Assembly (NCBI RefSeq): GCF_963921235.1
Contig: NC_086107.1
Location: 102,860,001-102,924,000, forward strand
Direction of reading: 5' to 3'
From: Mobula hypostoma
Lineage: Eukaryota
Length of the DNA: 64,000 bases
Below, one piece after another: positions 2,831 to 62,945 of this stretch. The notes below the pieces were generated by a model. It did no database searches. It was not told the DNA's origin and worked only from the letters and a program-made list of their open reading frames with translations. The position numbers were made by a program, and so were the translations under genes. Within the stretch, counting starts at the first letter, position 1, and every line of letters starts with the position of its first letter.

Positions 2831-3322
2831 ACACACAGGAGTAGGCCTCAGGTCTGACCCCACACTCAACATAACCATGGCTGATCTGCCTGAGGCTTCA
2901 TCTTCTCTGTTGTGGCAGTTCTCTCTTTCCTTCAGTATCTCTGTCCTTCACACCTGTCTGCCTCCACTTTAAATATATCTAAGCACCTGGCCTTCACCAC
3001 CATTCAGGGCAGAGCATTCTGGGGATACGCCACCAGCTGAAAGAGGAAACCTTGACGTGCCTTGGTTTTCGATGACTAGCCGCGCGTGCTGTAACTTCTC
3101 TCTGACGATCACCATCCTTTCGTGGTGAAGAGGCTTGAGAGTTCCTGAGGCCCCGAGGGTGATGCCGTCTGGAGAACAGCCGTTTGGCATGAGGCCCCTG
3201 GTCACGTGAGGCAGTAAGATCAAGGCCAAGGTTCCAGACAAAGAAGATCCAATCAAGGCCTCAGTGGTGGAGCTGGCATAAGATAATGACATGTCACAAT
3301 GGCATTGAAGACAGTACTTATC

Positions 3323-4500
3323 TTCACCACTACCTGTCTGTACCCATCTCCATGTACCTGTGTGTACCCATCTCCATGTACCTGTCTGTATTCATCTCTA
3401 TGTACCTGTCTGTATTCATCCCCACCAGCTACCTGTCTGTACCCATCTCCACGTACCTGTCTGTATTCACCTTCATGTATCTGTCTGTATTCATCTTCAT
3501 GTACCTATCTGTACCCATCTCCATGTACCTGTCTGTACCCATCTCCATGTACCTGTGTGTACCCATCTCCATGAACCTGTGTGTACCCATCTCCATGTAC
3601 CTGTTTGTATTCATCTCCATGTACCTGGCCGTATTCATCTCCATGTACCTGTCTGTATTCATCTCCACCAGCTACCTGTCTGTACCCATCTCTCCATGTA
3701 CCTGTCTGTATTCATCTCCATGTACCTGTCTGTACCCATCTCCATGTACCTGTCTGTATTCATCTCCATGTTCCTGTCTGTATTCATCTCCATGTACCTG
3801 TCTGTATTCATCTCCACCAGCTACCTGTCTGTATTCATCTCCATGTACCTGTCTGTATTCATCTCCATGTACTTGTCTGTATTCATCTCCACCAGCTACC
3901 TGTCTGTACCCATCTCCATGTACCTGTCTGTATTCATCTCCATGTACCTATCTGTACCCATCTCCATGTACCTGTCTGTACCCATCTCCATGTACCTGTG
4001 TGTACCCATCTCCATGAACCTGTGTGTACCCATCTCCATGTACCTGTTTGTATTCATCTCCATGTACCTGGCCGTATTCATCTCCATGTACCTGTCTGTA
4101 TTCATCTCCACCAGCTACCTGTCTGTACCCATCTCTCCATGTACCTGTCTGTATTCATCTCCATGTACCTGTCTGTACCCATCTCCATGTACCTGTCTGT
4201 ATTCATCTCCATGTTCCTGTCTGTATTCATCTCCATGTACCTGTCTGTATTCATCTCCATGTACCTGTCTGTATTCATCTCCATGTACTTGTCTGTATTC
4301 ATCTCCACCAGCTACCTGTCTGTACCCATCTCCATGTACCTGTCTGTATTCATCTTCACCAGCTACCTGTCTGTATTCATCTCCATGTACCTGTCTGTAC
4401 CCATCTCCATGTACCTGTCTGTATTCATCTTCACCAGCTACCTGTCTGTACCCATCTCCATGTACCTTCTGTACCCATCTTCACTACCTATCCGTCAGCT
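3323..4500. repeat. 24-bp minisatellite CATCTCCATGTACCTGTCTGTA(TT/CC), about 48 units, with a 443-bp higher-order duplication
   Basis: Direct reading. Rare variants ATGAACC (3571, 4014) and GGCC (3627, 4070) both recur at 443 bp. Confidence 0.95.
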
Positions 4501-5597
4501 CCATATTGTACTGATCTGTACTGATCTCATTTACCAGCACCGGGCATTAGTGAGGAAGGATTTTAGTTCTGAAAACTAAATAATATCGGCGTGGGTCAAA
4601 GCCAGAGACAGTATGGGCAGAAAATATTGCTGATATTTGCATATACCGACCCCAAAAGATGAAATGTTGGGCAGAGTATAACTCAGGACTTCAGAGGTGA
4701 AAGTAAAAAGGTTAATGAAATAACCATGGGAGATTTTAATCTGAGTAGGGACCAGGAGTCTGAGAATATTAATTCAGTGTGTGTTGAAGAGATAGATCTC
4801 TGGATCATTGTGTTGACAAACCAGTGATGCAAGAGACAATTTTAGATGCAGTCTAATGTTATGAGAAATGATTTATAGATGACCTGCAGCTTAGGGAGCA
4901 GGATTTAATATGATAGCATGTTATTATGAAGATTGAAACTGATCTAGTTCAATCCAACATCAAGGCTGTGAGTTTGCATACATCTAGCAAACTATTAAGG
5001 TATGAGATGCGAAGTTGGTAAGTTGGGAAAATTAATTAATAGGCATTATTGATGCATCTCTCCCCGCTGTTTGTATTCTATATGAGATACCTCAAGAAGC
5101 AACATCCATCATTGAAGATACCCACCATCCAAGCCATGTCATCTTCTCACAGCTACCATGGGGCTGGAGGAGCAGAAGTCCCGAAGACCCATAGCACCAG
5201 GTTTAAAACAGCTACTTCCCTTCAGCCGTCCGCTTCCTGAACCGATCAGCACAGCCCCACCACTACCTCAGTCTAGCAACACTGTCCTGAAGAAGGGTCT
5301 CGGCCCAAAACGCCGACTATCTATACATCTCCATAGATGCTGCCCGACCTGCTGAGTTCCTCTGGCTGTTGCTTTGGATTTCCAGCATCTGCAGAATCTC
5401 TTGTGTTTATAATCAGCAGCAGTATTGACCACTTCGATGTCGTTGCCCTACAATAGATTTTGTTTTTGGTTCTAATTGTATCCCTCCTTGTAAAAACACT
5501 AACAACAGGAATTCTGCAGATGCTGGAAATTCAAGTAACACACATCAAAGTTGCTGGTGAACGCAGCAGGCCAGGCAGCATCTGTAGGAAGAGGCGC

Positions 5598-5633
5598 AGT
5601 CGACGTTTCAGGCCGAGACCCTTCGTCAGGACT
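5598..5633 (-). ncRNA. Minimal hammerhead ribozyme (Penelope-like element terminus)
   Basis: Reverse complement reads AGTC CTGACGA AGGgtctcggCCT GAAA C GTC GACT; core intact. Confidence 0.75.
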
Positions 5634-5696
5634 AACTGAAGGAAGAGTGAGTAAGGGATTTTTACTTGCTCACTCTTACTAACTCTTCCTTCAGTT

Positions 5697-5732
5697 AGTC
5701 CTGACGAAGGGTCTCAGCCTGAAACGTCGACT
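5697..5732 (+). ncRNA. Minimal hammerhead ribozyme
   Basis: AGTC CTGACGA AGGgtctcagCCT GAAA C GTC^GACT; predicted cleavage after 5728. Confidence 0.75.
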
Positions 5733-6846
5733 GCACCTCTTCCTACAGATGTTGCCTGGCCTGCTGCGTTCACCAGCAACTTTGATGTGTGTTGCTTGTA
5801 AAAACGCTGTTTTTTTTTGTGAACACTGCTATGTGTCTGTGGCGCTGCAGCAAGTAAGTTTTTCTTTGAACCTGTGAATGCATGTACCCCAGCACATGAC
5901 CATAATCCTGATTTTGACATAAAGGAATTAACACATAATTTAACCTTAGCTGAATTGAGTACATTACAGACTGGGGGATAGATCTTCAAGTAGGAGTTAA
6001 TCTATTAAAAATGTACAAGTGTCCTGCCGAAGGGTTTCGGCCCAAAACATCGACTGTACTTTTTCCCATAGATGCTGCCTGGCCTGCTGAGTTCCTCCAG
6101 CACTTTGTGTGTGTTGTTTGGATTTCCAGCATCTGCAGATTTTTCTCTTGCTTGTTAAACATTGCTCTTTGGGCTAGACGGATGAAGGAACCTGGGAAAA
6201 AACTGGAACAGGGTACTGAAACTGGATAATTAGCCACGGTTATATACATCTCTCCATTACATTTGCTGTTTACATTTAAACTTTTGGATATATTTTTGCC
6301 ATATACATTTACAAGTTCCTCACATACATTCGCCATACTCGTCTCTGCACATAGTTGGCTCCCCTATACATAGAGTTAAGTGCACCAAGTTTCTGGGAGT
6401 TTACATCATGGATGACCTCATCTGGTTCCTCAATATCACTACCCTGAATAAGAAGGGAGAGCAGTGCCTCCACTTCCTGAGGAGATTGAGGAAAGCAGGC
6501 CCCCCTTCCCACCCCCAACTTAACTAAATTTTACAGGAGCACTGTTGAGAGCATCTTGACAAGTTACATCTCCGTCTGGTATGGAAGCAGCCGACCATCA
6601 GACCGGACATCCTTAAAAGGACTGTGAGAACAGCTGAGAAGATCAGAGCGATCTCCCTACCATCCACTGGGGACATTTATCAGGAGTGCTGTATACACAG
6701 AGCCCTTAGTAATATCAAGGATCCCTCCCACACATCCAGAATCCTCTTTGACTTTCTACCATCAGGCAGGAGACTCCAATGCATAAAGACAAGAACGGTC
6801 AGTATGGGAAACTATTTCCACCCTCAGGCCATTAGGCTTCTGAACT

Positions 6847-7483
6847 AGGCTCTGTCCGCCAGAGAAAGCAGGATCTCCCAGTGGCCACACATTTTAATTC
6901 CACATCCCATTCCCATTCTGATATGTCTATCCACGGCCTCCTCTACTGTAAAGATGAAGCCACACTCAGGTTGGAGGAACAACGCCTTATATTCCGTCTG
7001 GGTAGCCTCCAACCTGATGGCATGAACATCGACTTCTCTAACTTCCGCTAATGCCCACCTCCCCCTCGTACCCCATCCGTTATTTATTTATATACACACA
7101 TTCTTTCTCTCTCTCTCCTTTTTCTCCCTCTGTCCCTCTGACTATACCCCTTGCCCATCCTCTGGGCTTCCCCCCTCCCTCTTTGTCTTTCTCCCTGGGC
7201 CTCCCATCCCATGATCCTCTCATATCCCTTTTGCCTATCACCTGTCCAGCTCTTGGCTCCATCCCTCCCCCTCTTGTCTTCTCCTATCATTTTGGATCTC
7301 CCCCTCCCCCTTCCACTTTCAAATCTCTTACTATCTCTTCTTTCAGTTAGTCCTGACGAAGGGTCTCGGCCTGAAACGTCGACTGTACCTCTTCCTAGAG
7401 ATGCTGCCTGGCCTGCTGCGTTCACCAGCAACGTTTACGTGTGTTGTTTGAATTTCCAGCATCTGCAGATCTCCTCGTGTTTG
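6847..7483 (+). mobile_element. 5'-truncated Penelope-like retroelement (GIY-YIG C-terminus, 3' UTR, hammerhead terminus)
   Basis: 6851-7051 translates SVRQRKQDLPVATHFNSTSHSHSDMSIHGLLYCKDEATLRLEEQRLIFRLGSLQPDGMNIDFSNFR*. 13-bp TSD AGGCTTCTGAACT at 6834-6846 and 7484-7496. Confidence 0.85.
7349..7384 (+). ncRNA. Minimal hammerhead ribozyme
   Basis: AGTC CTGACGA AGGgtctcggCCT GAAA C GTC^GACT, about 300 nt downstream of the GIY-YIG ORF stop; predicted cleavage after 7380. Confidence 0.78.
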
Positions 7484-9213
7484 AGGCTTCTGAACTCTCT
7501 GCCGCATCACATTCAAAGTGTCATCGGATAACTTGTACTGTACCCTACAATATTTAATTTATCCACTTTACTTTGTTTATCTATGCACAATTCATTTATA
7601 GATGTAATTCTTACTTTCCTAAGTTGTTATGTGTTACATGTGTGTTATATATGTGTACTACCGTGCTTCACACCTTGGTCCGGAGAAAAATTGTCTCATT
7701 TGATGGTTTACATGTATATAGTTAAGTGACAATAAACTTGACTTGACTTGACATGTACATTTACAAATTCCTTATGCATTTAAATGTGTAAGGTGAGTAC
7801 AGTTGATGCCTGATGGTGAGACAGACTCAAAGGAGCAAAATGTCTACTCCTTCTATTTTCCACATTTCTGTGGGACTGAATTTATTTTGGACTAAGGAAA
7901 TGGAAGAAAAATCAAATAAGTCAGTTGCATCTGTTTTAATGGGGGGGGGGAAGCAGACAGAAAACCTCTCGAAAAAAGCACAGAACAATAGGCGGAGAGC
8001 GAGTGAGGAGTCAGAGGCTTGCGGCTAGGAACATGTCCTTTGGTCTCTCAGTACAAATACACATCTACATTTATCCCGAGCTAATCCCGCTTTACTTTCT
8101 CCACTTTCCCATCAACTCCGCACAAGTTCCATCACTTTCCTACGCACTAGGGAGATTTACTGTTAGCAATTAATCTCCTAACCTCGAGCAACACACAAAC
8201 ACACACACAGTGCTGAAGGAACTCAACAGGCCAGTCAGCATCTATGAGGAGACATTTCAGGCTAAGACCCTTCTTGTGTTTATAATCTACTAACCTGTTG
8301 AGTTTGGGATGTGGAGGAAACTAGAGCAACTGGGGGAAACCCAAGTAGTCACAGGAGGAGGCTTCGTCAATGGTGCCACACAAATAAATTTAACATTACT
8401 ATTCTTTATACTTTATACTTTATTGTCGCCAAACAATTGATACTAGAACGTACAATCATCACAGCGATATTTGATTCTGCGCTTCCCGCTCCCTGGATTA
8501 CAAAAACATAATTTAGGAGAAATTAATGGAGTTAAATAGGGAGAAGTCCTCACTATCAAATGACCTGCATCCTAATGTTTTGCAGTAAATGGCTATGAAG
8601 ATAACAGATGCTCTGGAATTGGAATTGGTTTACTATTGCCACATGTATGAGATACAGTGTAAAGCTTGCCCTGAATATGGTTCATACTGATCAAATCTTT
8701 ACACGGTGCATTGAGGTAGAACAAGGTAAGCAATAACAGAACGCAGAATAAAGTGTAACAGCTTCAGGGAAAGGGCAGTGGGGGCGGACAGTAAGGTGCA
8801 AGACAACAAGGTAGATTGTGAGCTCAAGAGCCCCACCTTGTACAAAGGAACCATCCAGAAGGCTTACACAGTGAGGAAGAAGATGTCCTTGAGCCCAGCT
8901 TCAGGCTTTTGTATCTTCTGCCAGATGGGAGAGGGGAGAAGGGAGAAAGTCTAGGGTATGAGGGATCTCTGATAATGCTGGCTGCTTTGGTTCAAGTTAG
9001 TCTCTTTCAGTTCCATGTTTTTTTTTCACATTCTGTGGTTTGGCCCATTCTTTTTTGTTGCTATTTGGTGTTATTCGTTAGTTTTTTTTTGGTGTGGGGG
9101 GATTGGGGTTTGGAGTTTAATGTTCTTGCCATTTGCACGATTTGTTTTTTTGCATGGGGGAGGGGGTTTGATGTTCTTGTTGCCGTTTGCATGATTTTTT
9201 TGTGTGGGGGGGT

Positions 9214-20725: not shown

Positions 20726-20975
20726 CAATACAGTACATTTCCCCCATATCTCAGCATTGTCCTCTCCAGCCTCTGCTTCCATGTCCAAGTCAGTAATTTT
20801 CACCAATCCCATCCCAAAATCCACTACTTGTGATTGGCTGTTCATCTTTTGCTCTGGGGATACAGGGATCTGATGACACTGGAACCTGGAGGAACGATAT
20901 GCTGGAGGACTCTGACATAGAGGTCCGACCCAAAACATAGACAATTTCTTTCCTCCCACAGATGCCGCTTGACCT

Positions 20976-21337
20976 CCCCTTCATACCCCATCCATTATTC
21001 ATTTATTATATATATATATTCTCTCTCTCCTTTTTCTCTCTCTCCTTTTTCTCTCTCTGTCCCTCTCACTATACTCCTTGCCCATCCTCTGGGATTCCCC
21101 CCTCTCCCTTTTCTTTCTCCCTGGGCCTCCTGTCCCATGATCCTCTCATATCCCTTTTGCCAATCACCTGTCCAGCTCTTGGCTCCATCCCTCCCCCTCG
21201 CCATCCCACTTTCAAATCTCTTACTAACTCTTCCTTCAGTTAGTCCTGACGAAGGTTGTCGGCCCAAAATGTCAACCGTACCTCTTCCTAGAGATGCTGC
21301 CTGGCCTGCTGCGTTCACCAGCAATTTTTATGGGTGT
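20976..21337 (+). mobile_element. Penelope-like 3' fragment nested in an older Penelope-like terminus
   Basis: Highly similar to 7060-7445, with a decayed hammerhead at 21242-21277. TSD TGCCGCTTGACCT (20963-20975) / TGCTGCTTGACCT (21338-21350). Confidence 0.75.
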
Positions 21338-22289
21338 TGCTGCTTGACCTGCTGAGTTCTTCCAGCAAATTGGTTGTTGTACCCTTCCTTCTGTTGCTGT
21401 CCCACAAGCCACTTCCCTGTACTAGACTTTCAGGTCTTCCTAAACTCTCCTTTAGTCACTGTTTTAAGTCCTCTTTGACCCTCTCATTCTTGCTCTAACT
21501 CACCAACAGAAACCACAAACATTTTCCATAGCACATTATAGTTGTTACAAATATCTCAAAATATAATCTACAGCACACTTATTATTACTTCGATATTATT
21601 GGTTTCTTTTGTAATCCTATGTATTTAATTTTAGATATTTAAACACATGATTGTGGGTAGGGGTCCCTGGGCTTCACCAGACTGCTAAAGAGGTCCATGG
21701 CATAAAAAAGGTTAAGAACTCTTGCTCTAACATCACTCCTCTCAATTCCCCTTAGCTTTAAAACTCTGCACCAAATTTTCAGTAGCAGCCTTTGGAATGG
21801 AATCCCCTGTCCTCAGCATCCAACCTTTACGACTGTGATACGTGGACAACCCCAGCCTAGAGCACCGTGCACCTACTCTTTCTCAAGAGCAGAGTACTCA
21901 TGTTCTGTACTCAACAGCCATCTTGAGATTCTGATTGCGTAATTTTAACTCTGCTTCCCACTCTCATGTGTCTTCACCTTCACCATTGCTAAAGGTCAAA
22001 TGTAAATTGAAAAAAATAAACATCTCAGATCCATTAGGTGGTTTACAATCGAATGAATGGTATGAGCATCAAATTCTACTATTACAAGTAAACCATTCCC
22101 CTGGTGCTCTCCCCCAATAAATTAATGTCCATCTAGATTTCTTCCTCCTTTGTTCACTTTTCCCATCACCCCTTTACCCAGTTGCATCTACCCACCCACC
22201 GCCTGTTCCACGCATTACCTACCAATCTGCGTCTCAGCACCTCCCTCATAGTGCTGTTCCTCTTCCCTCATTCCTGCTGCAGGGCCTCA

Positions 22290-35057: not shown

Positions 35058-35972
35058 TTAGTTTGCCAAGACAACTGGCTGAAATGGCTGGTTAGGATAC
35101 TGCATGGTATTCAAGTTGAAGTCAAGTCCTTCCACAAACGGGGCTTTCTCGCCCAGGTTGTTGTTATTGTAGATTGGTGGCACCTCAAAGGCATTAGGGA
35201 ATGGCGCCGGGCCAGATGATGACTGATTTTCATTCCCGAAGTACAAGCTCAGGGAACCGGGGTACACAAACTCCTTGGCATTGGGAGAAAGGGAGGATGG
35301 TGGAATCTGGTTGCTGCTGAGGACTAGCGAATGCATTGATGTAGACAAACCTTTCTGCTTAATCAAGCCATTGGTCGGAGAGCGAGCCATTCTGCGGCCT
35401 CCAGTTTTCATCTTGGTGGACCCAAATTTGGTGGCAGCAAAGGCTGCAGTGGTAAATGTGATTGGCTGAGTAGACCTCGGGATGAAGGTGGGGCTCACTG
35501 AATTTCCAAAGGATGGTGACGGAGAATTAGACAAAGAGTTGCCCTGGTCAGTGATGGGTGTGAAGACCTGGGCCTCTGGGTTAAAGCTGCTCTTTATCTC
35601 CTTGTCCAATTCTGCACTCTCATTGTCGTCCATGTAGAGGACCTTCACAGCCCCTTTCTCACCAATCTGATAGGACACCTCAAACGGATCAATCCAGAGG
35701 CTCAATTCTTGCGGAACATTGGCCCGAATATCTTCTATATCTAAACCACTCCTCCTTGCAGCTTGCTCTATGATGGGGTCCACAGTTTCTCCGATATGGA
35801 CACACCTGTACCCAGATCCTTTCAGGGGCTTTTCTAGGTACCAATGGCCCTCATATTTCTGTTTCAGCAACCGCTCCAGCTCCTCGCCGAAGAGGTCTGC
35901 ACGTCGCCGTGGTAATTTGTTGTACAGATAGGAGATTATGAAATTTAAAGCCACTTTGATCTCCAAATGCAT
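35058..35972 (-). CDS. TOB2: Transducer of ERBB2 2 (BTG/Tob antiproliferative family, CAF1/PABP adaptor), 304 aa, single coding exon
   Basis: Translation [61 protein letters not shown]...[18 protein letters not shown] is a BTG domain (boxes A/B). PAM2 motifs SFNPEAQVF and [11 protein letters not shown] are present. [17 protein letters not shown] and C-terminal FQPVVLAN match TOB2 rather than TOB1. ATG at 35972 has A at -3; the ORF-track extension to 36098 crosses a splice acceptor. Confidence 0.96.
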
Positions 35973-36032
35973 GCTGGATATGGTGACTGGGGCAAGGCAG
36001 TGTAGAAAGAGCTTCAGATCTTCAAACAATTC

Positions 36033-36060
36033 CTTAAAAAGGAGAAATGGAAAAGTTAGT
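36033..36060 (-). promoter_or_regulatory. TOB2: 3' splice acceptor of the TOB2 coding exon (exon begins 36032)
   Basis: Minus strand reads ACTAAC (branch point, 36060-36055), then ttttccatttctccttttt, then aAG|GAATTG, 60 nt upstream of the ATG. Confidence 0.88.
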
Positions 36061-37964
36061 TTACACATACATTTTCTGAGTGCAACTATAAAATACATTT
36101 AAAACAATTATTGGGGCATAAATTCAAACATTATTTCGAGTTTCAGTCATAACACCTAAAGGGAGCAAAAGTGAAGAGATAACCTGCATTGAGGGGTAGT
36201 CAGAAATAAATTAAGCTACTTTAGCTGCTAAATTACTCAAAAAGTGACAAAGTCTAGGAAGCAAAGTTAACCTGGCTTTGTCACTGCAGCCATGCATCGC
36301 TTTCCTAAAAATGACAAAATAAAAGGAATTTAAAAACCATCGACGATCCCCTAATATACTACAGGAAAAGCTTCACTTCAGCAATTATGTGTTCAAAAGT
36401 TTTGACGGGAATAAACTAAATTCATTCTAGTAGCAAAGTACCATCAGAAGGCAGATTTAAAATCCTCAGACAATGAACTTAAAAAATATATTTTTTCTGG
36501 TATAATCTGGGACCCACTGCCAAATAGGTTAAAAGCTTGAACAACAAAAAAAAAGGTTCTGGTAAAAGGGCAGGGGAGTGGGAGTAATTGAAGAGAACAT
36601 GCAGAGAGCTGGCAGTCACAATTGGCAGGCTATACTCCTGTGCTGTACCATAATGGAATTCCATTTCTGAATCTGCACAATATTTTCACCACACTAATCC
36701 CCAGTTTCCCCAGTAACAGGCTTGTAGGCTTGCCAGTACTTCACCTCTCTATACATATCAAAGTGTTCTTTCTAGAAATAGTCTCAGTTTGAATATACAA
36801 GTTATACTGCTAACCAGTAAAATTCAGAATGTGCAAATATACATACTTGTGTGATTACCCTCAGCAATCCCTGTAACTCTGTCTACTTACGAGGTGGTAA
36901 GATCAACACCTACAAAATACACCATGGCTTCGCTTCTTGTCTGGCAATGTCTCCCAAATCCAGGGCCTTTGCCACTGGGAAGAAAGATAACAGGTGCACG
37001 GAAATGCTACCACTTGCAGTATCCAAATCCCGCACTATCCCAAATATTCCTTCAGCTTTGGAATAGGCCACCAAAACAAACCATGGGAGTGCCTCTGCAG
37101 CGCTTAAAGCAGCAGTCACAAGCTCAGGGAAAAGGATGGCCAATAAACACTGGTCTTGCCAGCACCCACACTCTGAAAAATGAAATAAAAGAAATTACAC
37201 TCTCTTTGGCTGAATTTCAGAAGAACCTAGCAGAAGGCGCCACTGTACGTGGTTAACACAACGCTATCACACCTCAGGTCAGAGCTCAAAGTTCAATTCC
37301 GGCATTGCAAGGTTCAAAGATTCATTTTGCCAAAGTATGCATGTACAATACTACTGATGTTCACCTTCTTCAGATAGCCATGAAATACAGGAAGACCATG
37401 GGAGTTGTTGAAAAAGCATTAACCTCTCCCGCCCTCCCTCAATGGTACAAAAAGAGCAATAGCATCAAATCCCCACCACCTCCTCACAGAAAAACAACAA
37501 CAATAGCATCAAATCCCCAACCCCCTTCCCTGCAGAAAAGAGCAGAGCTCTTCTGTGACCTTGTGGGTATCCTCCAGGTGCTCTGGTTTCCTCCGATAGT
37601 CCAGACATATTGGTTAGTAGGTTAACTGGTTAATTGTACACTGCCCTGTGTTTAGGGCAGCGTTAAATAAGTGGGTTGCCAGGCAGCATGGCGTGGCTTG
37701 ATGTGCTGGAAGGGATTGTTCCAGGCTGGAAAGGCTTGTTCTGCACTATATCTCAAATAAGTGTAAAAAGCTGGGTGCTTTGATTATAGGGAAGCAAAAT
37801 GTGTCCAGAGGCACTAAAAAACTTATACCATCATACATTAGTAAATAAACATCCCAAGGATTACAACTCAAGCTCCAATCTGATAATGACATGCTACATG
37901 TAAAATCTACCGACAGTCACTGGATGCCAGTGGATGCTAGATCACTTTCCCCATTCACCATTGG

Positions 37965-41363: not shown

Positions 41364-42755
41364 ATCTAAACCAAGCTCTACAGCTTCACTTTCATTGAAT
41401 ATTTTTGCTTTTATTAGCATTTAAATTAATTAGTATTAACTAAAATTCAGCAATATCCCAGCATAATGCTAATTTAACTCAAATTTGAACTGTGCAAACT
41501 ATTCGAACTATTTCAAGACCCAAAATGTCAACCATCCGTTTACTTCTACAGATAGTGTTCTATCCGTTTGTTATACATTAACGAATTTCTCTCCTTCCAC
41601 TGGTGATACCCGACCCACTGAGCATTTCTCCTATTTTCTGTTTTCACTTCATTGCATATTGAGCATTTCATAGAATATTTATTAGTGTGCCAGCAAGAAC
41701 AGAAGGTTGAAGTTACCCAGCATAGCCAAGATGAAAACAACAAAACCCACTGCCTGTCACTCTAGGCAGTGATCATTATTATTTAAGTACAGAGTGGGCT
41801 GCCTCAGTATTCAGGTTGAGCATTTCAAAAAGCCAATTTTCTCAAAATCAATTGAAACTGAGAAATCACAAGCCACTTTTGGTGTAACCCAAAGGAGGAT
41901 ACACATTTTACTGAAGTAATTTCCACCATCAACTCTCTACATGAATTCGGAGAATAAATCGATGCAGCAACAGCATCCTGTACACCACTGCTGCCACTGG
42001 AGGAAGGTGCCTGCATGTGGCAGTCTCTTCTCTTCACCCCCCTCCACCCCAAATTTGCTTGATGCTCCCAAAGGAAGGTCCCTCCCTGCATCTGAATGAT
42101 CTCCCTCTCAATGGTGCTGGAGCCCTGGGTCTTGAGCAAGGTTTAATCAAGGCTATTTTTGGATTGGACTCTGTAGTTCACATTGTGATATGTTTCTGGT
42201 TCCTGGTTGGTTGCTCCTTTTTTTGTTGCTATTTTGGGCAAATTGACAAAGTGGCTGTGGGAAGACAGAATCTCAGGGTTGTGTACTGTATACGTACTTT
42301 GAGCCACTGGTTTGCGATTCTACCAGTTTTTTGTTTGGGTTGTTAAAGGCAAAATTGTGCATAACGTGGCAATTAGACTCAACGGACAACACGATCAAAT
42401 ATGGTTGTTTGTCTGAACTGTGATCAAAAATGAAAATTTAACTACTTAATTTCCACCTTTTGAAAGGGGTGACTTGAGTTGGAATTTCCTTTATCAGAAC
42501 CTGGAATCCTTAGCACAGCCCTCAGTAGATCCTAAATGCAAAGCCCAACACAGCAAGTAACAGAAGGTAGCTGGATGGTAAGGGAGTAACAGGATAGGCC
42601 AACCCAATACATAACAGTCACTAACATATGTTTCCCAGTAGGGTTCACAGGATGCTCATCAGGAGTAGAAGCCCTACCTGACTGGGTTGAAACAGCAGAA
42701 CAATGTCAACACAAATTCTATCGACATTTGAGTACGATCAGTAATCAAATTAGAT

Positions 42756-43823
42756 CACAAACAAGAGGAAATCTGCAGATGCTGGAAATCCAAGCAACAC
42801 ACGCAAAATGCTGGAGGAACTCAGCAAGCCAAACAACTACTATGGAAAACAGTACAAATGACATTTCGGGACAAGACCCTTCAGCAGGACTGGAGAAAAA
42901 AAATGACTCAGAGTTACAAGGTGGAGGGAAGAATTTCTCTTCTGTTTTGCACACGTCTGCCCTCACCCCACCAGGGACAGGATTTGTCTTGTCCTCACCT
43001 ACCACCCCATCAGCCTCCACGTCCAGTACATAATTTTCCACCTGTCCCTCCCCACTAATCTCCCTCCTGGCACTTATCCTTGTAAGCTGAACAAGTGCTA
43101 CACCTGCCCCTACACCACCTCCCTCACTACCAATCAGGGCCGCAAACAGTCCTTCCAGGTGAGGTGACACTTCACCTGAGAGTCTGTTGGGGTCATCTAC
43201 TCTATCTGGTGCTCCTGATGTGGCATCCTGTGTACTGGTGAGACCTGATGTAGATTGGGAGACCACTTTGTCAAGGACCTATGCACCGTCCGCCAGAAAA
43301 AGTGGATCTCCCAGTGGCCAACCATTTTAGTTCCACTTCCCATTCTGACATGTCAGTCCACGGCCTCCTCTAATGTCGCGATTAGGCCACACTCAGGTTG
43401 GAGGAGTAACACTTTATATTCCATCTTGGTAGCCTGATGGCATGAACATCTATTTCTTGAGCTTCCAGCAATGCCCAACCCCACCTTTACCATTCTCTTT
43501 TCCCTCTCACCTCATCTCCTTACCTGCCCATCACCTCCTTCTGGTGCCCGCCTTTTCTTTCTTCCATAACCTTCTGTCTTCTATCAGATTCCTCCTTCTC
43601 CAGCCCTATATCTCTTTCACCAATCAACTTCCCAGCTCTTTACTTCATCCCACCCCCTCCCAGTTTCACCTTGTGTTTCTTCCTCCCCTCTCCCTACCTT
43701 CTAACTCTGACTCTTCATCGTTTTTTCCTCCAGTCCTGATGAAGGTTCTTGGCCTGAAACGTCGACTGTACTCTTTTCCATAGATGCTGCCTGGCCTGCT
43801 GAGTTCCTCCAGCATTTTGTGTG
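42756..43823 (+). mobile_element. Degenerate Penelope-like element (Neptune-like) with inverted 5' terminal segment
   Basis: About 43065-43440 translates PPGTYPCKLNKCYTCPY...HFT*ESVGVIYSIWCS*CGILCTGET*CRLGDHF, a Cys-rich linker plus decayed VIY/YIGET GIY-YIG. 42756-42930 is an inverted copy of the terminus. Possible decayed TSD TCAAATTAGAT / TCAAACTAGTT. Confidence 0.8.
43732..43767 (+). ncRNA. Minimal hammerhead ribozyme
   Basis: AGTC CTGATGA AGGttcttggCCT GAAA C GTC^GACT. Changes versus other copies fall only at N7 and in loop II. Confidence 0.75.
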
Positions 43824-46800
43824 TCAAACTAGTTGGTTTAGTTTAGCCACATTTTCTTCCAACTGAAGAACAGTACTGGCCCTGTCAGAATTAAGCAGAT
43901 CCAGCACCCTGCTGAGCTCCAATTTACTGTCAAATTTCTCCCTTAGGACAGTGAAGGCTACTCCTTGTGCTTGGGTACAGAAGGTTTCAAGTATCTTTTT
44001 CTGCAATGCCATCCTGTCCCGTTTTCTCTCTCCATGTGTCTGTCAGAAGGTTGACAATAAACTATTCTCATTACTCTGCCAAGCATTTGCAAAAGCTGCA
44101 TGTGGGTGACCCAGATTACATCACCTGCTATTTTCTCTTCCTGTAACAACTTCAGCTTTTACAAAGATAGAAAGTTGATCAGCTGAGAAACTTGGAAGTG
44201 CAAATTCACAGCCCATTAACAAGCAATGCAGAGGTGCAGCTTCAGATTAACTCTTCAATTCTAGTGCAGCATCAGAGGAAATGCTCATGTTTTGCAACAA
44301 GACAAAATCACTGATATAAAAACCGAAAGAAAAATGGGTAATCTTTCACCTCGTGATGATCTATTACATCTTGCTTAATTGCATAAGAATTGAGGCTTAA
44401 AACACACAGATAGAAACACATTGAACATACGACTAAAGGGTACAGAAAGGCCATTGCTGTAAACTGGAATCACTATTTGTAACACTAGTATCCAAATGGT
44501 AGACCAGTAACAAAAGTACTTCACTTGCAGAGTAAAATCTTGTCAATGGCTGCAAGAGTCCAAAATTTTAAAGCCCACCTGCCAACTTCAACAAATTCTC
44601 CCCCACCACTTCCCCAATAAGCCCCAAATTCCTCAAAATTCACTTCATAGCTTTCTGCAGATGCTGTGCTGAAAATGATACACAATTCCTAGAATGTCCC
44701 AGCCTGTACATCACCAGGACATCAACAAGAGTAGTGTGGTCCGGAGAAAAGGCTTTTAGTCCTGGTGACTAAGCGTTTGAGAAAAAAAGGGGGTGGGGAG
44801 AGTAGAAAACAATTCCACTTTCCACACCACTTCTCTCACTAGATAAATGCTGTCCTCATTTTCAGAATCTGATTACAGTACGTCACTCTGACACAGCAAA
44901 TGGACACCTATGCTTACTGAATTACACTAGCTCCTGAAATGGTAAATACTTCAAACTTAAATATTTGCCTTGCTTTTTCAGTGCTTCCAGCTCAATCTCT
45001 AAGATTATTTTCACTAATACAACCCACAAATTTGTGCATCTCCAATTTAGCATCTTACAGCCTGATCCAGCCATCTGGCCTCAGAAAATAGTATTCACCC
45101 ACTAAGCTTCAAGATTTTCTTCAAAGCTTTACTGCTGTGCCCTAGGCCTCTAATCATCAGCTCAAGTATCTCCTTATGCAGTTATATGTCAAATTTTGCT
45201 GTGAAATGCCTTGGGGTATTTTGGCAAATTAAGGAGTTCGGATACGTGGCACGGTGGGGGTAGTTGGGTAGAGATCTAAGAGGCAAGAGATAATTTTATC
45301 AGACTTATGAAACTATGTTCCTCAATAAGAACTTGCATACTTTAAAATCATTTTGTATGACTTCTCCATGGCTCCTCTATTTCATTCTCACTCAGTCTAA
45401 TGCCATTTAACCTGGAGCTGTGCTAGTCTAAACGTATATTACATTTCATCTGGAAAATATACGTACCTACATTCTTACCTCTTTCACAGAAATATAAATT
45501 CTATGAATAGCTTAGGCAGCAATATCTTCAATAATCTGAATGACCACCACCCCCCATGAGCAAACTCAGTACTTAAATTGCCACCAGCCACCATATGTAC
45601 CTTCAACACAAGAATACGCTCCAAAACAGCACAACTAACCAAGTCCCACATACAAACAGGTGACCTCAGCTTCATAAATCCACCAGACCAAAGCAATTTA
45701 TCTCAAGCCATTCAATGACTTGAGCTACTCAGTTGCATGGGGTAGAAAATAACAAAGATTCTTAACTGATCTATTTTAATTGTATTTTTATTTTGAAATT
45801 ATGTAGCCCATTTCCACCTTTCCAGTTTCCCCTCAATAGCCCTCAAGGGAATACTCCTTTAGAACTTACCTTGCTTAATGTATAGAAGTTCACCCATTTC
45901 TTCCAATGTTCAAACAAGCACAGGCCAAACAGCTCAACCTGTCCTAAACAATCCCTTTAACCCCAGAATCAAACAAATGAACAAGTCTTAATTACCCCTA
46001 ATGCCAACAAGGAAATATCTATATGCATGACACAATATGGACTCAGTTGTAATGAAACCTTCCTACTTTTATGAACTACCCTTTACGCCACATTGATCAA
46101 CATTCCATAGAGTTCCACACAATATTCTGCTTTCTTATCTTCCCAGCAGACCGGATAGTGTCAGGTGTTCAGGGTCAGATATGTATCCACACAGCTTTGT
46201 AGGCCAAATCTGCTTCAACTTGTTTTCTCCTTTTATCTTTGCACTGTCAGCAAACTTGATAACAATGGCTTCACCCAAGCCACATCCCACTCATTATAAT
46301 TTAGTCATCTGGAAAAGAACTTGTTTACCCAACATAATTTCTCACAGAATATATTAGCCCCAACATCATGATCCATTAGCCCACCCAATAATCTTGTGAA
46401 ATCCATTCAGGTGCCCATGATTCATCCTCAAAGCTGTAAAGTTGATTCACTTTTCATAAAACCATATCAACACTGCTTGATTGTATGAGGATTTTTAAAA
46501 TATCTTGATACTACTCCCTCAATAATTAATTCATATTCTAAATTCCTTTCTCAGAGAGGCATGACATCTGTCATTTCTAATGTGGGACCTTTTAAGAATG
46601 AAGTTAAGGAAGATCTTGACATTGCATCCCCATTAGTAGCCCTGTTTTCCAAATGCTAGGGTGCATTGCATTGGATCCAGAGAATGTGTCAGCTATTAAT
46701 CTTATTTTAGTTTCTTTGCTTCTTTTCTATAGTAACTTTGGTTTGAATACTTCCCTCTACCTTGCTGTGGATTTTTTTTTACTGAAATGTACCAAATGTG

Positions 46801-55459: not shown

Positions 55460-55880
55460 TTGTGGTGCCGGGAGCGGGCTGGCCTCGGGTCGGTCCGGGT
55501 CCGGGTCCGGGTGCAGGTCCGGTTCCGCCGCCGCCTCTCAGCCCGAGCTGCCGCTGCCCAAACTTTAGCCCCAGCTCCCGGCGCACTTATATCACTTCAC
55601 ATCCCCACGGTCAGCTGCCCCGCCGGATCTACTTTCCCAATATAAGGAAAACACACGGCGTGTCGTTTACCACTCAGCCCCTCATTGGACTCCTCTCCCG
55701 TGTCTCGTTATATCGCAAGCGTCGCACCGCTTCGTTTTTTTCCTGCGTTTTCCAAATTTTCTTTGTCAGAATGGTGAGGTTTTTCTCCCGTCTTATTTTT
55801 TTCACGTCGGAAGGAGGCGTACGCAGAACGTCAGGGGCGCGACGCGGCTGCCGTCCTTCTCGATACTAAAAATAAAGCGG
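55460..55880 (-). other. TOB2: Probable non-coding exon 1 of TOB2 (5' boundary uncertain, could be as short as about 55560-55460)
   Basis: CpG-rich segment ending in a strong donor CAA|GTAAGC (intron starts 55459). Mammalian TOB2 has a non-coding first exon plus one coding exon. Implied intron is 36033-55459. Confidence 0.65.
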
Positions 55881-55894
55881 CGTGCTAGCAACTC

Positions 55895-55995
55895 GGCTCT
55901 GATTGGTTGCTGCCTGAGAAATGACTACTTCTGATTGGTAGGATGCATTGACCAATTGGTTACCGCGTAACTGACGTCACAATCACGTCAGCAAG
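55895..55995 (-). promoter_or_regulatory. TOB2: TOB2 proximal promoter cluster: CCAAT boxes and CRE sites at the CpG-island edge
   Basis: ATTGG at 55902-55906 and 55934-55938 (32 bp apart), palindromic CCAATTGG 55952-55959, perfect CRE TGACGTCA 55972-55979, CRE-like TCACGTCA 55983-55990. Confidence 0.75.
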
Positions 55996-56157
55996 AAAGC
56001 CTTGCATTTATATATCACCTTCCACATCCTTGGGACATTCAAAGTAACTTGCATTTACATATCAACAGGAATTCTGCAGATGCTGGAAATTCAAGCAACA
56101 TACATCAAAGTTGCTGGTGAACGCAGCAGGCCAAGCAGCATCTATAGGAAGAGGTAC

Positions 56158-56193
56158 AGTCGACGTTTCAGGCCGAGACCCTTCGTCAGGACT
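56158..56193 (-). ncRNA. Minimal hammerhead ribozyme
   Basis: Reverse complement is identical to the 7349-7384 motif. Confidence 0.75.
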
Positions 56194-56211
56194 AACTGAA
56201 GGAAATTAGTT

Positions 56212-56247
56212 AGTCCTGACGAAGGGTCTCGGCCTGAAACGTCGACT
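56212..56247 (+). ncRNA. Minimal hammerhead ribozyme
   Basis: Identical to the 7349-7384 motif; predicted cleavage after 56243. Confidence 0.75.
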
Positions 56248-57929
56248 GTACCTCTTCATATAGATGCTGCTTGGCCTGCTGCGTTCACCAGCAACTTTGA
56301 TGTATGTTGCTTGCATTTACATATCATGTTTTGCATCTTCACAGTATCGCACACACTCTAATCAGAAACTAGAATAGAAATAAGCTGCCTGGGCCTACTC
56401 TGCCAATCCACATGTGCAGTCAGTTTTCTTTTACTTATTTGGAGATTTATAAGGCATAAGCCCTTCCAAGCCATGCCCCCCAGCAACCCATCGATGTTAA
56501 CCCTAGCCTAATCACAGGACAATTTACAATGACCAATTAAACTACTAACTGGAGCTTCTGTAGGAAACCCACGTGGACACGGGAAGGACATACAAACTTG
56601 CTTACAGAGGACGTCAGAATTGAACTCTGAACTCTGACATCCTGAATTGTAATAGCGGTTGCTAAACACTGCACTACCCTGATCTGTAAACTGCAAACAC
56701 TACTTTTAAGTCATAGCCTCACATTTATTGATACCATTAATATCCAGATATCTATCAAGTTCGGTTCTGAATGAAACCAATAACTGACCCTTCACAACCC
56801 TCAAGGTAGAGGATTCCAAAGGTACATTACTTGAGTGAAGAATTTTTTTCACATGACATTACCACATATTCTGAGGCTGTCTCTTCCTTGTTCTAAATTC
56901 CTTAACCAAGTGAAAGACCTAACTTGTCAAGCCATATAAGAATGTTGTCTATTTGAGAGAAGTCACATCTCATTCTTCTAAATGCTGAAGATTAAGGGGC
57001 CTGGCCAATCTTGCCTTCATGGGAACCATTTTAATGAAACTTTACTGCTCTTAAATAATTCAAAGTACATTTATTATCAAATAATGTGTAAATTATACAA
57101 CCTTGAGATTTGTCTGCTAACAGGCAGCCACAAAGCAAGAAACCCGAGAGAACCCAATTTAAAAAAGACCAACCCCCCAATTTGCAAAGAGAAACAGAAA
57201 AAAACACAAATCATGCAAACAATAAAAACAAGCAAAAGCATTCCGAGCTAAATTGAGACCATAAACCAGGAACAGCTGGAGCTGGCCCATAGCCTCGGTC
57301 TCACTCTGTTTATAGCAAAAAAGGAGATCAGAATTGTTTAACTAAGGGCCTTTGTAATTGCAATTAGACTTCCTGACTCTCATACTCAAATCCTCTTACA
57401 ATGAAGTGCCATCTGTGATTTACCTTCCTCATTTCCTGCTTCACCTGCAAGTCACCCTTTCAGTAAATTGTGTACAAGAATGTCCGGGTTGCTTTGAACA
57501 TCTCCATTTCTCAGCCTTTTGCCATCTAAAAAAAATACCCAGCTTTTAAGTTTTTCTACCAAGTGGGGCATAATTTCAATGTTGTGTTCCACGTGTCATG
57601 CACTCAACTGATGCCTCTTTCCTTTCTTATCATCTGCTCATATTATCTAATTCACTCATAGTTTTATGTCATAGGTTGCATTGATATCCTTTGGCCTCCA
57701 ACTTAGGAATGAACTCTTTCTAGTCTATCAGATGACAATACTCACAATTCCACATCTTCTAACCTTTTCTCGCCAACCTCCTGGGAGGACCATTGTTGAA
57801 AGTCTCCTGAAAATCCAAACACCTCACATGGATGGCCTCTCTCAAAAATCTCTTCAGAGGGAATAGTGGGAGACTTTCAAAGAGATGCTTTCGCGCTGCC
57901 CAACAGAGTATACTCCAGCTAAAGACTAG

Positions 57930-60814: not shown

Positions 60815-61220
60815 CCTTACTCGCTTCTGCCTGTTATGCCACTGGCGTTTAGGGCAGCAATGAAGATCTCCATCTCTGGTGGTGCTCAGGGTTTTCTCTG
60901 GGTTTTCACTACTGTCAGTCATGCAGGTCCCGGGTGGAGACTCAGGAATACCGTCGCACTCAGATGTAGAAGGATTCTTCATTGCTGTTCCCTAACAATT
61001 CTGTTTGACCAGTCAGGCTTGTCAGCCCTGAGCTGAACCCCCAAACCTGGAGGACTGGTGGGCCACTCTTAGTCTGGCCTCTGACCTTTGACCTATTGGG
61101 CATGGATGACCCTACCAAGGGCAAAAGCATAAAGCCCGGATTCCAGCCGACATAGCTCTCTGGGTCATTGAGAATCGCAAGTTTCCAAACCACAACAAGG
61201 TTGTGGTCCTCTTGGAGGGA
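60815..61220 (-). mobile_element. RTE-related non-autonomous element, copy 1
   Basis: Reverse complement matches 62563-62945. The 5' part (CCACAACCTTGTTGTGG..CAATGACCC..CTTGGTAGGGTCA) resembles fish RTE/Expander 5' UTRs. Confidence 0.6.
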
Positions 61221-62562: not shown

Positions 62563-62945
62563 CTCCAAGAGGACCTCAATGACCCGGAGAGCTGTTGGCT
62601 GGAGTCAGGGCCTTGTGCTTTGGCTCTTGGTAGGGTCACCCATGCCAAACAAGTCAAAGGGTGACAGACTGACAGTAGTCCACTGGTCATCCGGGTTCGG
62701 AGGTCCAACTCAGGGCTACCAACCCCAACTGCTCAAACAAAATTGTTCTGGGAACAGTAATGGGGAATTGTTCTGCATCTGAGTGTGACGGTATTCCTGA
62801 GTCTCCACCTGGGACTTGCATGACTGACAGTAGTGAAAACCGAGATGAAGCTGACACAATGAAGGAAGCCCTGAATACTGCCAGAGATGGACGATCTTCA
62901 CTGCTGCCTGAAACGCCAGCAGTGTAACAGGCAGCAGAGTGAGTA
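62563..62945 (+). mobile_element. RTE-related non-autonomous element, copy 2
   Basis: Inverted homologue of 60815-61220. Confidence 0.6.

Follow-up and report, generated by a model that had tools for sequence, protein, structure and literature searches.

Short head-to-head insertions of a Penelope-like element in a window of the Mobula hypostoma genome

Introduction

A hairpin-shaped insert of 294 nt with two arms, termed unit A, is located in a window of the Mobula hypostoma contig NC_086107.1, where it extends from 5487 to 5808 including both copies of the target duplication (TSD). The window is the whole stretch of 64,000 nt (64 kb) that was analysed, and all positions are counted from its first letter. 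The locus raises the question of what kind of element leaves such a short insert, and how the two arms came to lie head to head. A preliminary description, made from the sequence alone, regarded unit A and a second unit as Penelope-derived fold-backs that form anew at each insertion.

Anatomy of unit A and its sister insertion

The inverted-repeat scan of the window placed the arms of unit A at 5532-5655 and 5675-5798. The arms are 124 nt long, 96% complementary and 19 nt apart, and differ from each other at 5 of 124 positions. The TSD copies (5487-5500 and 5795-5808) are 14 nt long and identical at 13 positions; a match as good was obtained in 0.045% of 20,000 random flank pairs. The arms, the TSD and the variants shared by the arms are thus as the preliminary description gave them. 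The features of unit A are as follows:

5487-5500, no strand assigned: left TSD copy, 13/14 identical to 5795-5808
5501-5531, minus strand: PLE 'tail' of 31 nt, absent from the right arm; its outermost 2 nt may be filler
5532-5661, minus strand: left (inverted) arm, a 5'-truncated pLTR that ends 28 nt upstream of hammerhead stem I
5598-5633, minus strand: predicted minimal type-I hammerhead motif in the left arm (descriptor scan)
5662-5677, plus strand: centre junction; left-arm 5643-5655 recurs here as a 13-nt inverted copy (5665-5677), next to a few filler bases
5673-5798, plus strand: right (forward) arm, a 5'-truncated, tail-less pLTR; its final 4 nt are common to the TSD
5697-5732, plus strand: predicted minimal hammerhead motif in the right arm, with one stem II/loop change (descriptor scan)
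5795-5808, no strand assigned: right TSD copy

Near-perfect palindromes can arise in library preparation. A fold-back artefact of sequencing or assembly was rejected as a negligible possibility in view of the TSDs, the 5 differences between the arms of unit A, the one-sided tail and the complex centre.

The sister insertion, termed unit B, is found at the other end of the window:

56048-56326, no strand assigned: unit B, 245 nt, with a 17-nt TSD, a 27-nt tail (27-29) and arms at 56092-56204 and 56208-56313

The arms of unit B differ at 1 of 106 positions (56092-56197 against 56208-56313), and its TSD copies (56048-56064 and 56310-56326) are identical at 17 of 17. The right arms of both units stop at GTTGCTTG, and both TSDs begin with CTTG, so that 4 nt are common to element and target. 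The equal end points claimed earlier for the two units are thereby confirmed. The left arms also start alike, as had been noticed, but the common start is CAACAGG (5503 and 56063) and not the sequence first proposed; in unit B the first 2 nt of this start overlap the TSD. The outer end of the left arm exceeds the right arm by 31 nt in unit A and by 27 nt in unit B. The left arms continue to 5661 (A) and 56204 (B). The spacers of 19 and 10 nt were correctly sized in the preliminary description; however, these are loop sizes rather than filler, and the true remainder of the centre is 11 nt in unit A and 3 nt in unit B.

In a 104-nt core, the arm-to-arm distance is 4 in unit A and 1 in unit B, and the distance between the units is 6-7. 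Two private changes in this core are common to the arms of unit A and absent in the other 4 of 4 arms compared, and the arms of unit B likewise have 2 of their own. These shared variants suggest that the two arms of a unit have a common source, be it one lineage or one molecule. Conversion can act on close inverted repeats, and the variants might instead have been equalised by later hairpin-mediated gene conversion rather than taken from a shared template. Such conversion seems quite unlikely: unit B is young by its TSD and its single arm difference, yet it has 2 private changes common to its arms, and the arms of unit A still differ at 5 sites.

The parent element

Each arm of units A and B represents the terminal repeat (pLTR), with its hammerhead, of a Penelope-like element (PLE), which bears out the proposed Penelope origin. 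The tail segment of unit A also terminates the left arm of unit E and the copies C, F, G and H described below. An open 67-aa piece of copy C had 8 matches among 36 candidates, all of them myliobatiform ray proteins by source name (best identity 93%), and 4 of the 6 matches scanned resemble the Pfam GIY-YIG domain weakly (E 5e-4 to 2e-3, below the curated cut-off). The sequence P0002 contains the YIDD motif of RT, a CX4CxxC linker and a CxxC inside GIY-YIG (Pfam GIY-YIG E 4.6e-4, below the gathering score); the linker and cysteine motif definitions applied to it are those in the relevant passages of PMC8557442. Copies C and E align to P0002 by tblastn (E 1e-34 and 9e-54). The CX4CxxC linker precedes GIY-YIG in both P0001 (unit E) and P0002, and agrees with the CX2-5CxxC pattern of Neptune/Nematis. 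The RT core is absent from the 64-kb window, and no full-length copy in partial tandem (pLTR-ORF-pLTR) is present there. Pfam returned nothing relevant for the window's own fragments (the 67-aa piece of copy C and P0001), which counts against our best explanation.

The hammerhead descriptor scan found 6 intact motifs in the window, 4 of them in units A and B. The motif has a 4-bp stem I, CUGANGA, a bulged A, stem II, GAAA, and a palindromic ACGU replacing stem III. As predicted from the sequence, the motif of the unit A arms matches the minimal hammerhead architecture of PLEs in the passages on it in PMC4209133. The Rfam search of 5200-7700 at E<=5 gave no hammerhead among its 11 matches, all of which are below the gathering score; the sub-threshold microRNA matches on the centre of unit A reflect the hairpin only. 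Monomer RNA folds had no excess stability over shuffles (z -0.96 to 0.47), and the monomer folds into an alternative rod.

The features expected of insertions of an endonuclease-bearing (EN+) PLE are found together, namely a parent encoding RT with a C-terminal GIY-YIG, a pLTR with a minimal hammerhead, an adjacent inverted 5'-truncated copy, a one-sided tail and a TSD. The tails of 31 nt (A) and 27-29 nt (B) are at or slightly under the stated range of 30-40 nt. Unit A is almost certainly one dead-on-arrival insertion of an endonuclease-bearing PLE of the Neptune/Nematis linker type.

Insertions of the family in the window

The profile search of the 64-kb window gave 13 arms at E<=1.7e-14 among 23 matches at E<=10, which form 10 insertions: four are two-armed (A, B, E and I), five are single copies with a tail (C, F, G, H and J), and one is a single tail-less copy (D). 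A TSD could be called in 6 insertions (A, B, C, D and I, and weakly in E); F, G, H and J, with no confident TSD by eye, were left out of the overlap counts. Besides units A and B, the insertions with a TSD are:

6847-7483, plus strand: copy C, single forward copy with the GIY-YIG C-terminus, a pyrimidine tract, the pLTR and the tail; 13-nt TSD (6834-6846 / 7484-7496)
8171-8296, minus strand: unit I, two-armed insertion of 98 nt (8185-8282); 14-nt TSD with 1 mismatch
20976-21341, plus strand: copy D, single forward tail-less copy; 13-nt TSD with 1 mismatch; overlap of 3-4 nt at the 3' end
42745-43834, no strand assigned: unit E, long and older two-armed version; weak 11-nt TSD with 2 mismatches

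The host sequence of copy C reads as an older LINE. In 4 of the 4 two-armed units there is exactly one tailed and one tail-less arm. Unit E consists of an inverted pLTR plus tail of ~175 nt, followed by ~890 nt in forward orientation (thumb end, CX4CxxC linker, GIY-YIG and tail-less pLTR); a TSD match like that of unit E is expected by chance at 0.6%. In unit I, the inverted arm of 11 nt is all tail, and a 2-nt overlap joins it to a tail-less forward arm of about 89 nt. Neither arm of units E and I can be a copy of the other, and these units need two separately primed cDNAs. The constant pairing of a tailed with a tail-less arm, over arm lengths from E to I, indicates that units A and B occupy the short middle part of a continuous series.

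These units do not agree with the term 'fold-back' in the sense of one arm copied from the other, since the tail is one-sided, the forward arm of unit E is ~700 nt longer, and the inverted arm of unit I contains only tail. Formation de novo, rather than from a fixed MITE, is supported: A is unlike B in its centre, in the lengths of its arms and in its private variants, and the architecture recurs in E and I at very different arm lengths.

Unit I is also the clearest sign within the window of separate priming of two arms. The older single pLTR copies G (5286), F (6021) and H (11165) all start close to where hammerhead stem I begins, and most arms have their 5' end no more than about 30 nt from this stem. 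This clustering may be due to stalling at the pyrimidine tract, or to a short subfamily that is non-autonomous.

Copies in public runs

The PLE family is very abundant. The contigs aligned to copy C, which are contigs and not copy numbers, amount to 219,479 of 29.4 million in run X1 and 129,778 of 22.2 million in run X5; these runs contain 0.70 and 0.46 of the window's sampled words, respectively. The tail end of the element is stereotyped: at 7483, contigs pass from copy C into long, dissimilar flanks in 394 (X1), 389 (X5) and 77 (X13) cases, and in run X9 the exit at 7483 is not among the six listed. Among the 24 of 2,918 loose ends listed, those before 7349 were not taken as 5' truncations because other subfamilies diverge there; copy C also has private bases near its tail-less site. 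Scans with the DNA pattern gave 0 matches in metagenome contigs, viral contigs and prokaryote genome contigs.

Run X9 also showed five well-supported joints on 6834-7500, which lead from 7474 back to about 7398-7401. These suggest a high-copy unit of ~75 nt from the pLTR end, possibly a tandem repeat.

The two units might also be copies of a single palindromic non-autonomous master, or of a few, that would be MITE-like or retrozyme-like. The outer ends of A and B are the same and their cores are ~94% identical, as expected of such copies; whereas the centres and lengths differ (294 nt in A, 245 nt in B and 98 nt in I), the tail is one-sided, private variants are shared only within units, and the TSDs are 14-17 nt. 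Among the 15 of 340 joints listed from the public runs, 2 change strand (6953/7362 in X13 and 7368/7400 in X5) and none lies at the centre of A or B, which is weak counter-evidence as palindromes assemble badly. Descent from such masters is highly improbable. A MITE was rejected, since lengths and centres differ and the ends are asymmetric. A non-LTR retrozyme was also rejected, because the arrangement is head to head with two arms only and not a head-to-tail tandem of hammerhead repeats.

Centre junctions

The centres of the two units are different. In unit B the turn is at a 7-bp inverted repeat already present in the parent, and this repeat is the longest exact stem with a loop of <=40 nt that copy D has in its 366 nt; at the centre of unit B, 3 bases replace one at the loop end of the repeat. 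The left arm of unit A has a base change in the 7-bp repeat and extends ~17 nt further than the turn of unit B. The patch at 5665-5677 in unit A carries the changed base of the left arm; whereas the right arm resumes with the parental base and starts with a 10-nt direct duplication. The DNA fold of this centre is a 13-bp hairpin (z -5.07). The centre of unit A looks like a snap-back patch that joins the ends of two cDNAs, a reading that depends on one base.

A turn at the hammerhead cut site was rejected: the centres lie 4-28 nt upstream of stem I, and the cut site is ~32 nt downstream of the start of this stem. A perfect 12-bp inverted repeat (6966-7017) in the GIY-YIG coding end of copy C is a candidate turning point for longer two-armed units.

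A single cDNA could in principle produce both arms. One tail-primed cDNA would stall, fold and copy itself back, and would then be captured by the other target end at the CTTG microhomology. In A and B, this accounts for the near-equal arms, for the variants that these share and for the 4 nt of overlap; the turn of unit B on the longest exact stem of copy D and the hairpin patch of unit A also fit, and self-priming is proposed for inverted PLE junctions in the passages of PMC3846280 on them. However, it cannot make unit E with its much longer forward arm, unit I with an inverted arm of tail only, or copy D, which is tail-less and has no inverted arm, and the right arm of unit A lacks the left-arm base that the patch carries. 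On balance, self-copying of one cDNA appears somewhat unlikely.

Overlap between element and target

Element and target share 4 nt (A), 4 nt (B), 3-4 nt (D), 1 nt (E) and 0 nt (I) at the five tail-less ends. Unit E ends about 8 nt earlier than A and B. At the tail end the overlap is 0 nt in A and C, 2 nt in B and 5 nt in I; the value for unit I was judged from a 16-nt exact match to the end of copy G and assumes that the last bases of G are element. Overlaps of 3-5 nt at one priming end are thus found in 4 of 6 TSD-bounded insertions.

Priming by CTTG, as first proposed, is dispensable: unit I, with no CTTG in its TSD, has the end base of A and B, and D and E end elsewhere. Since unit I stops at the base used by A and B without this word in the target, the end point is set by the element. 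The fixed tail-less end is best read as an internal RT start site of the element, with short pairing helping. The CTTG overlap could also be a sequence preference of the endonuclease or chance, and not primer-template pairing. The 0-nt and 1-nt overlaps of I and E point in this direction, and A and B were singled out for their likeness; whereas copy D overlaps on a different word (TGCT) with its end shifted 2 nt earlier to fit, unit I has its 5-nt tail-end overlap with respect to copy G, none of the TSDs of C, D, E and I opens with CTTG, and a 4-nt overlap is available at 0.4% of random sites for a fixed end, or 3-6% if the end moves over 7-13 nt. Preference or chance is therefore judged unlikely. 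Short primer-template pairing looks favoured and optional, in a small sample in which A and B were chosen for likeness.

Several probable nick positions, at TSD ends of A, C, D and I, fall after CT (5 of 12 ends by eye), which are too few for a nuclease preference. The literature search, with most subscription papers outside it, returned none on the overlap of primer and template in vivo where PLEs start RT, nor on the ray family.

Proposed route of insertion

The anatomy of the units, their PLE identity, the asymmetry of the tail and the different centres are matters of observation. For the route that made them, the best explanation is that both nicked target strands primed RT and that the truncated cDNAs were joined head to head; we infer every enzymatic step, and the probability of this reading is about 0.6-0.65. 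The GIY-YIG nuclease of the element would nick both target strands 13-17 nt apart. Each target 3' end would then prime RT on the element RNA, one at the outer tail end and the other at an internal start ~30 nt upstream. Primer-template pairing over a few bases (CTTG in A and B) may favour priming and would not be needed. Both cDNAs would stop early and be joined head to head, via the element's own short inverted repeat in unit B or a short snap-back patch in unit A, and fill-in would leave the TSD.

Priming of two cDNAs is favoured because units E and I are inexplicable by one arm copying the other, and because the patch of unit A has the base of the left arm while the right arm keeps the parental base. 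It also gains support from PMC11167929, whose passages on the PAc protein describe nicking and extension of both strands, two start sites bounding the tail, and a predicted dimer. Several points count against it. Only 4 two-armed units were examined, and the TSD of E is weak. A single snap-back cDNA also fits A and B, as their arm ends differ by 4 and 7 nt and the variants are common. The argument from the centre of unit A is one base, which could be a later conversion. PAc belongs to another clade, and its reported starts are not homologous to the target.

A more specific version is that a single RNP dimer makes each two-armed insertion by copying the same RNA two times, once starting at the tail end and once at the internal start; pairing of 3-5 nt would usually guide one of the two primers, and snap-back or inverted microhomology would seal the cDNA ends. 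This is a tentative proposal that we consider possible and more doubtful than the general route. If true, it would qualify the in vitro claim of homology-independent initiation.

Comparison with known systems

Twin priming of L1 inverts non-overlapping parts of one RNA; whereas both arms of the units described here carry the same sequence. The units are otherwise like L1 twin priming and 5' inversion as outlined in the portions consulted of 10.1101/2024.12.14.628481, in that both target ends are extended by RT and joined, and an inverted segment lies within one TSD. They resemble MITEs, in the features treated in passages of PMC8969392, in being short and non-coding with a fold-back shape and a TSD; however, they originate from a retroelement end, have asymmetric ends and a centre that differs per copy, and no shared master was seen.

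The closest published counterparts are PLEs. The passages of PMC3846280 on Pen2a_Av (Adineta vaga) describe adjacent inverted pLTRs, a TSD, and a tail of 31 bp that one inverted pLTR may carry, and an inverted truncated copy with a one-sided tail of 30-40 bp is given as typical of PLEs in the Fig. 2 scheme of PMC8557442. The units here likewise have an inverted 5'-truncated pLTR beside a forward copy, one TSD, and an extension of ~30 nt on one arm (27-31 nt, against 31 bp). The palindromic junctions of Pen2a_Av, comparable to those of the present units, are ascribed to self-priming where PMC3846280 discusses them. Unlike in the described Pen2a_Av insertions, units A and B are cut inside the pLTR on both arms and have no ORF left. 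The TSDs here are 13-17 nt, against the 8-10 given for A. vaga in that part of PMC3846280, and the host is a ray-like vertebrate with very many copies, which differs from the A. vaga case as described there. The remark that the units contain nothing else is overstated: with both arms cut inside the pLTR and no ORF left, the units are only an extreme 5' truncation of the inverted-copy-plus-tail pattern in the cited passages of PMC3846280 and PMC8557442.

The protein PAc of Poseidon from Anolis carolinensis nicks and extends both strands, uses two RT starts bounding the tail, and is a predicted dimer, according to the sections of PMC11167929 that deal with it. Two fixed 3' ends bounding the tail, possible extension of both target strands, and copying of the uncleaved hammerhead are likenesses between those sections and the insertions here; whereas the clade is different (CX4CxxC linker here), and initiation by PAc is given there as not homologous to the target, against the 3-5 nt overlaps in the window. 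Copy D sits inside an older pLTR of the same family (20920-21372), which is consistent with the liking for its own repeats reported for PAc.

The hammerheads share with the minimal hammerheads of metazoan PLEs the core motif, a bulged base before stem II, and palindromic bases for stem III, as laid out in the passages of PMC4209133 on this class; its passages on hosts do not name cartilaginous fishes, and the motif here is known from sequence alone. Paired hammerhead motifs 100-700 bp apart on opposite strands are mentioned for Schistosoma mansoni in the part of PMC4209133 on that species. The literature search on shark and skate gave only unrelated papers among the matches listed. Unit A is a short instance of the published head-to-head, one-tailed PLE insertion pattern, real and mostly ordinary.

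Surroundings and significance

A CpG-rich stretch (55600-56050), in which several CCAAT boxes and CRE-like words can be read by eye, is no more than about 100 nt away from unit B. This stretch is probably a promoter, and may perhaps serve a Tob-type gene on the minus strand. A single-frame coding region with BTG and PAM2, which is a Tob-family gene, is located at 35058-36098 on the minus strand. Two other repeats were observed in the window: an inverted pair of ~350 nt (60824-61172 / 62575-62937), 77% alike and 1.4 kb apart, that is not of the PLE family, and a long tandem minisatellite (3193-4579) giving several open frames.

As an element, unit A matters little, being a dead truncated PLE copy of published shape. 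The origin of the inverted repeats and tails of PLEs is called unresolved in the passages on this point in PMC8557442 and PMC11167929. Such short units pack the two priming sites, the TSD and the centre junction into 300 nt, and are raw material for tests of the PLE integration route. Annotators may mis-call them as MITEs or microRNA hairpins. If the proposed reading is true, very many short and fully readable insertions would be a direct record of the integration pathway of PLEs.
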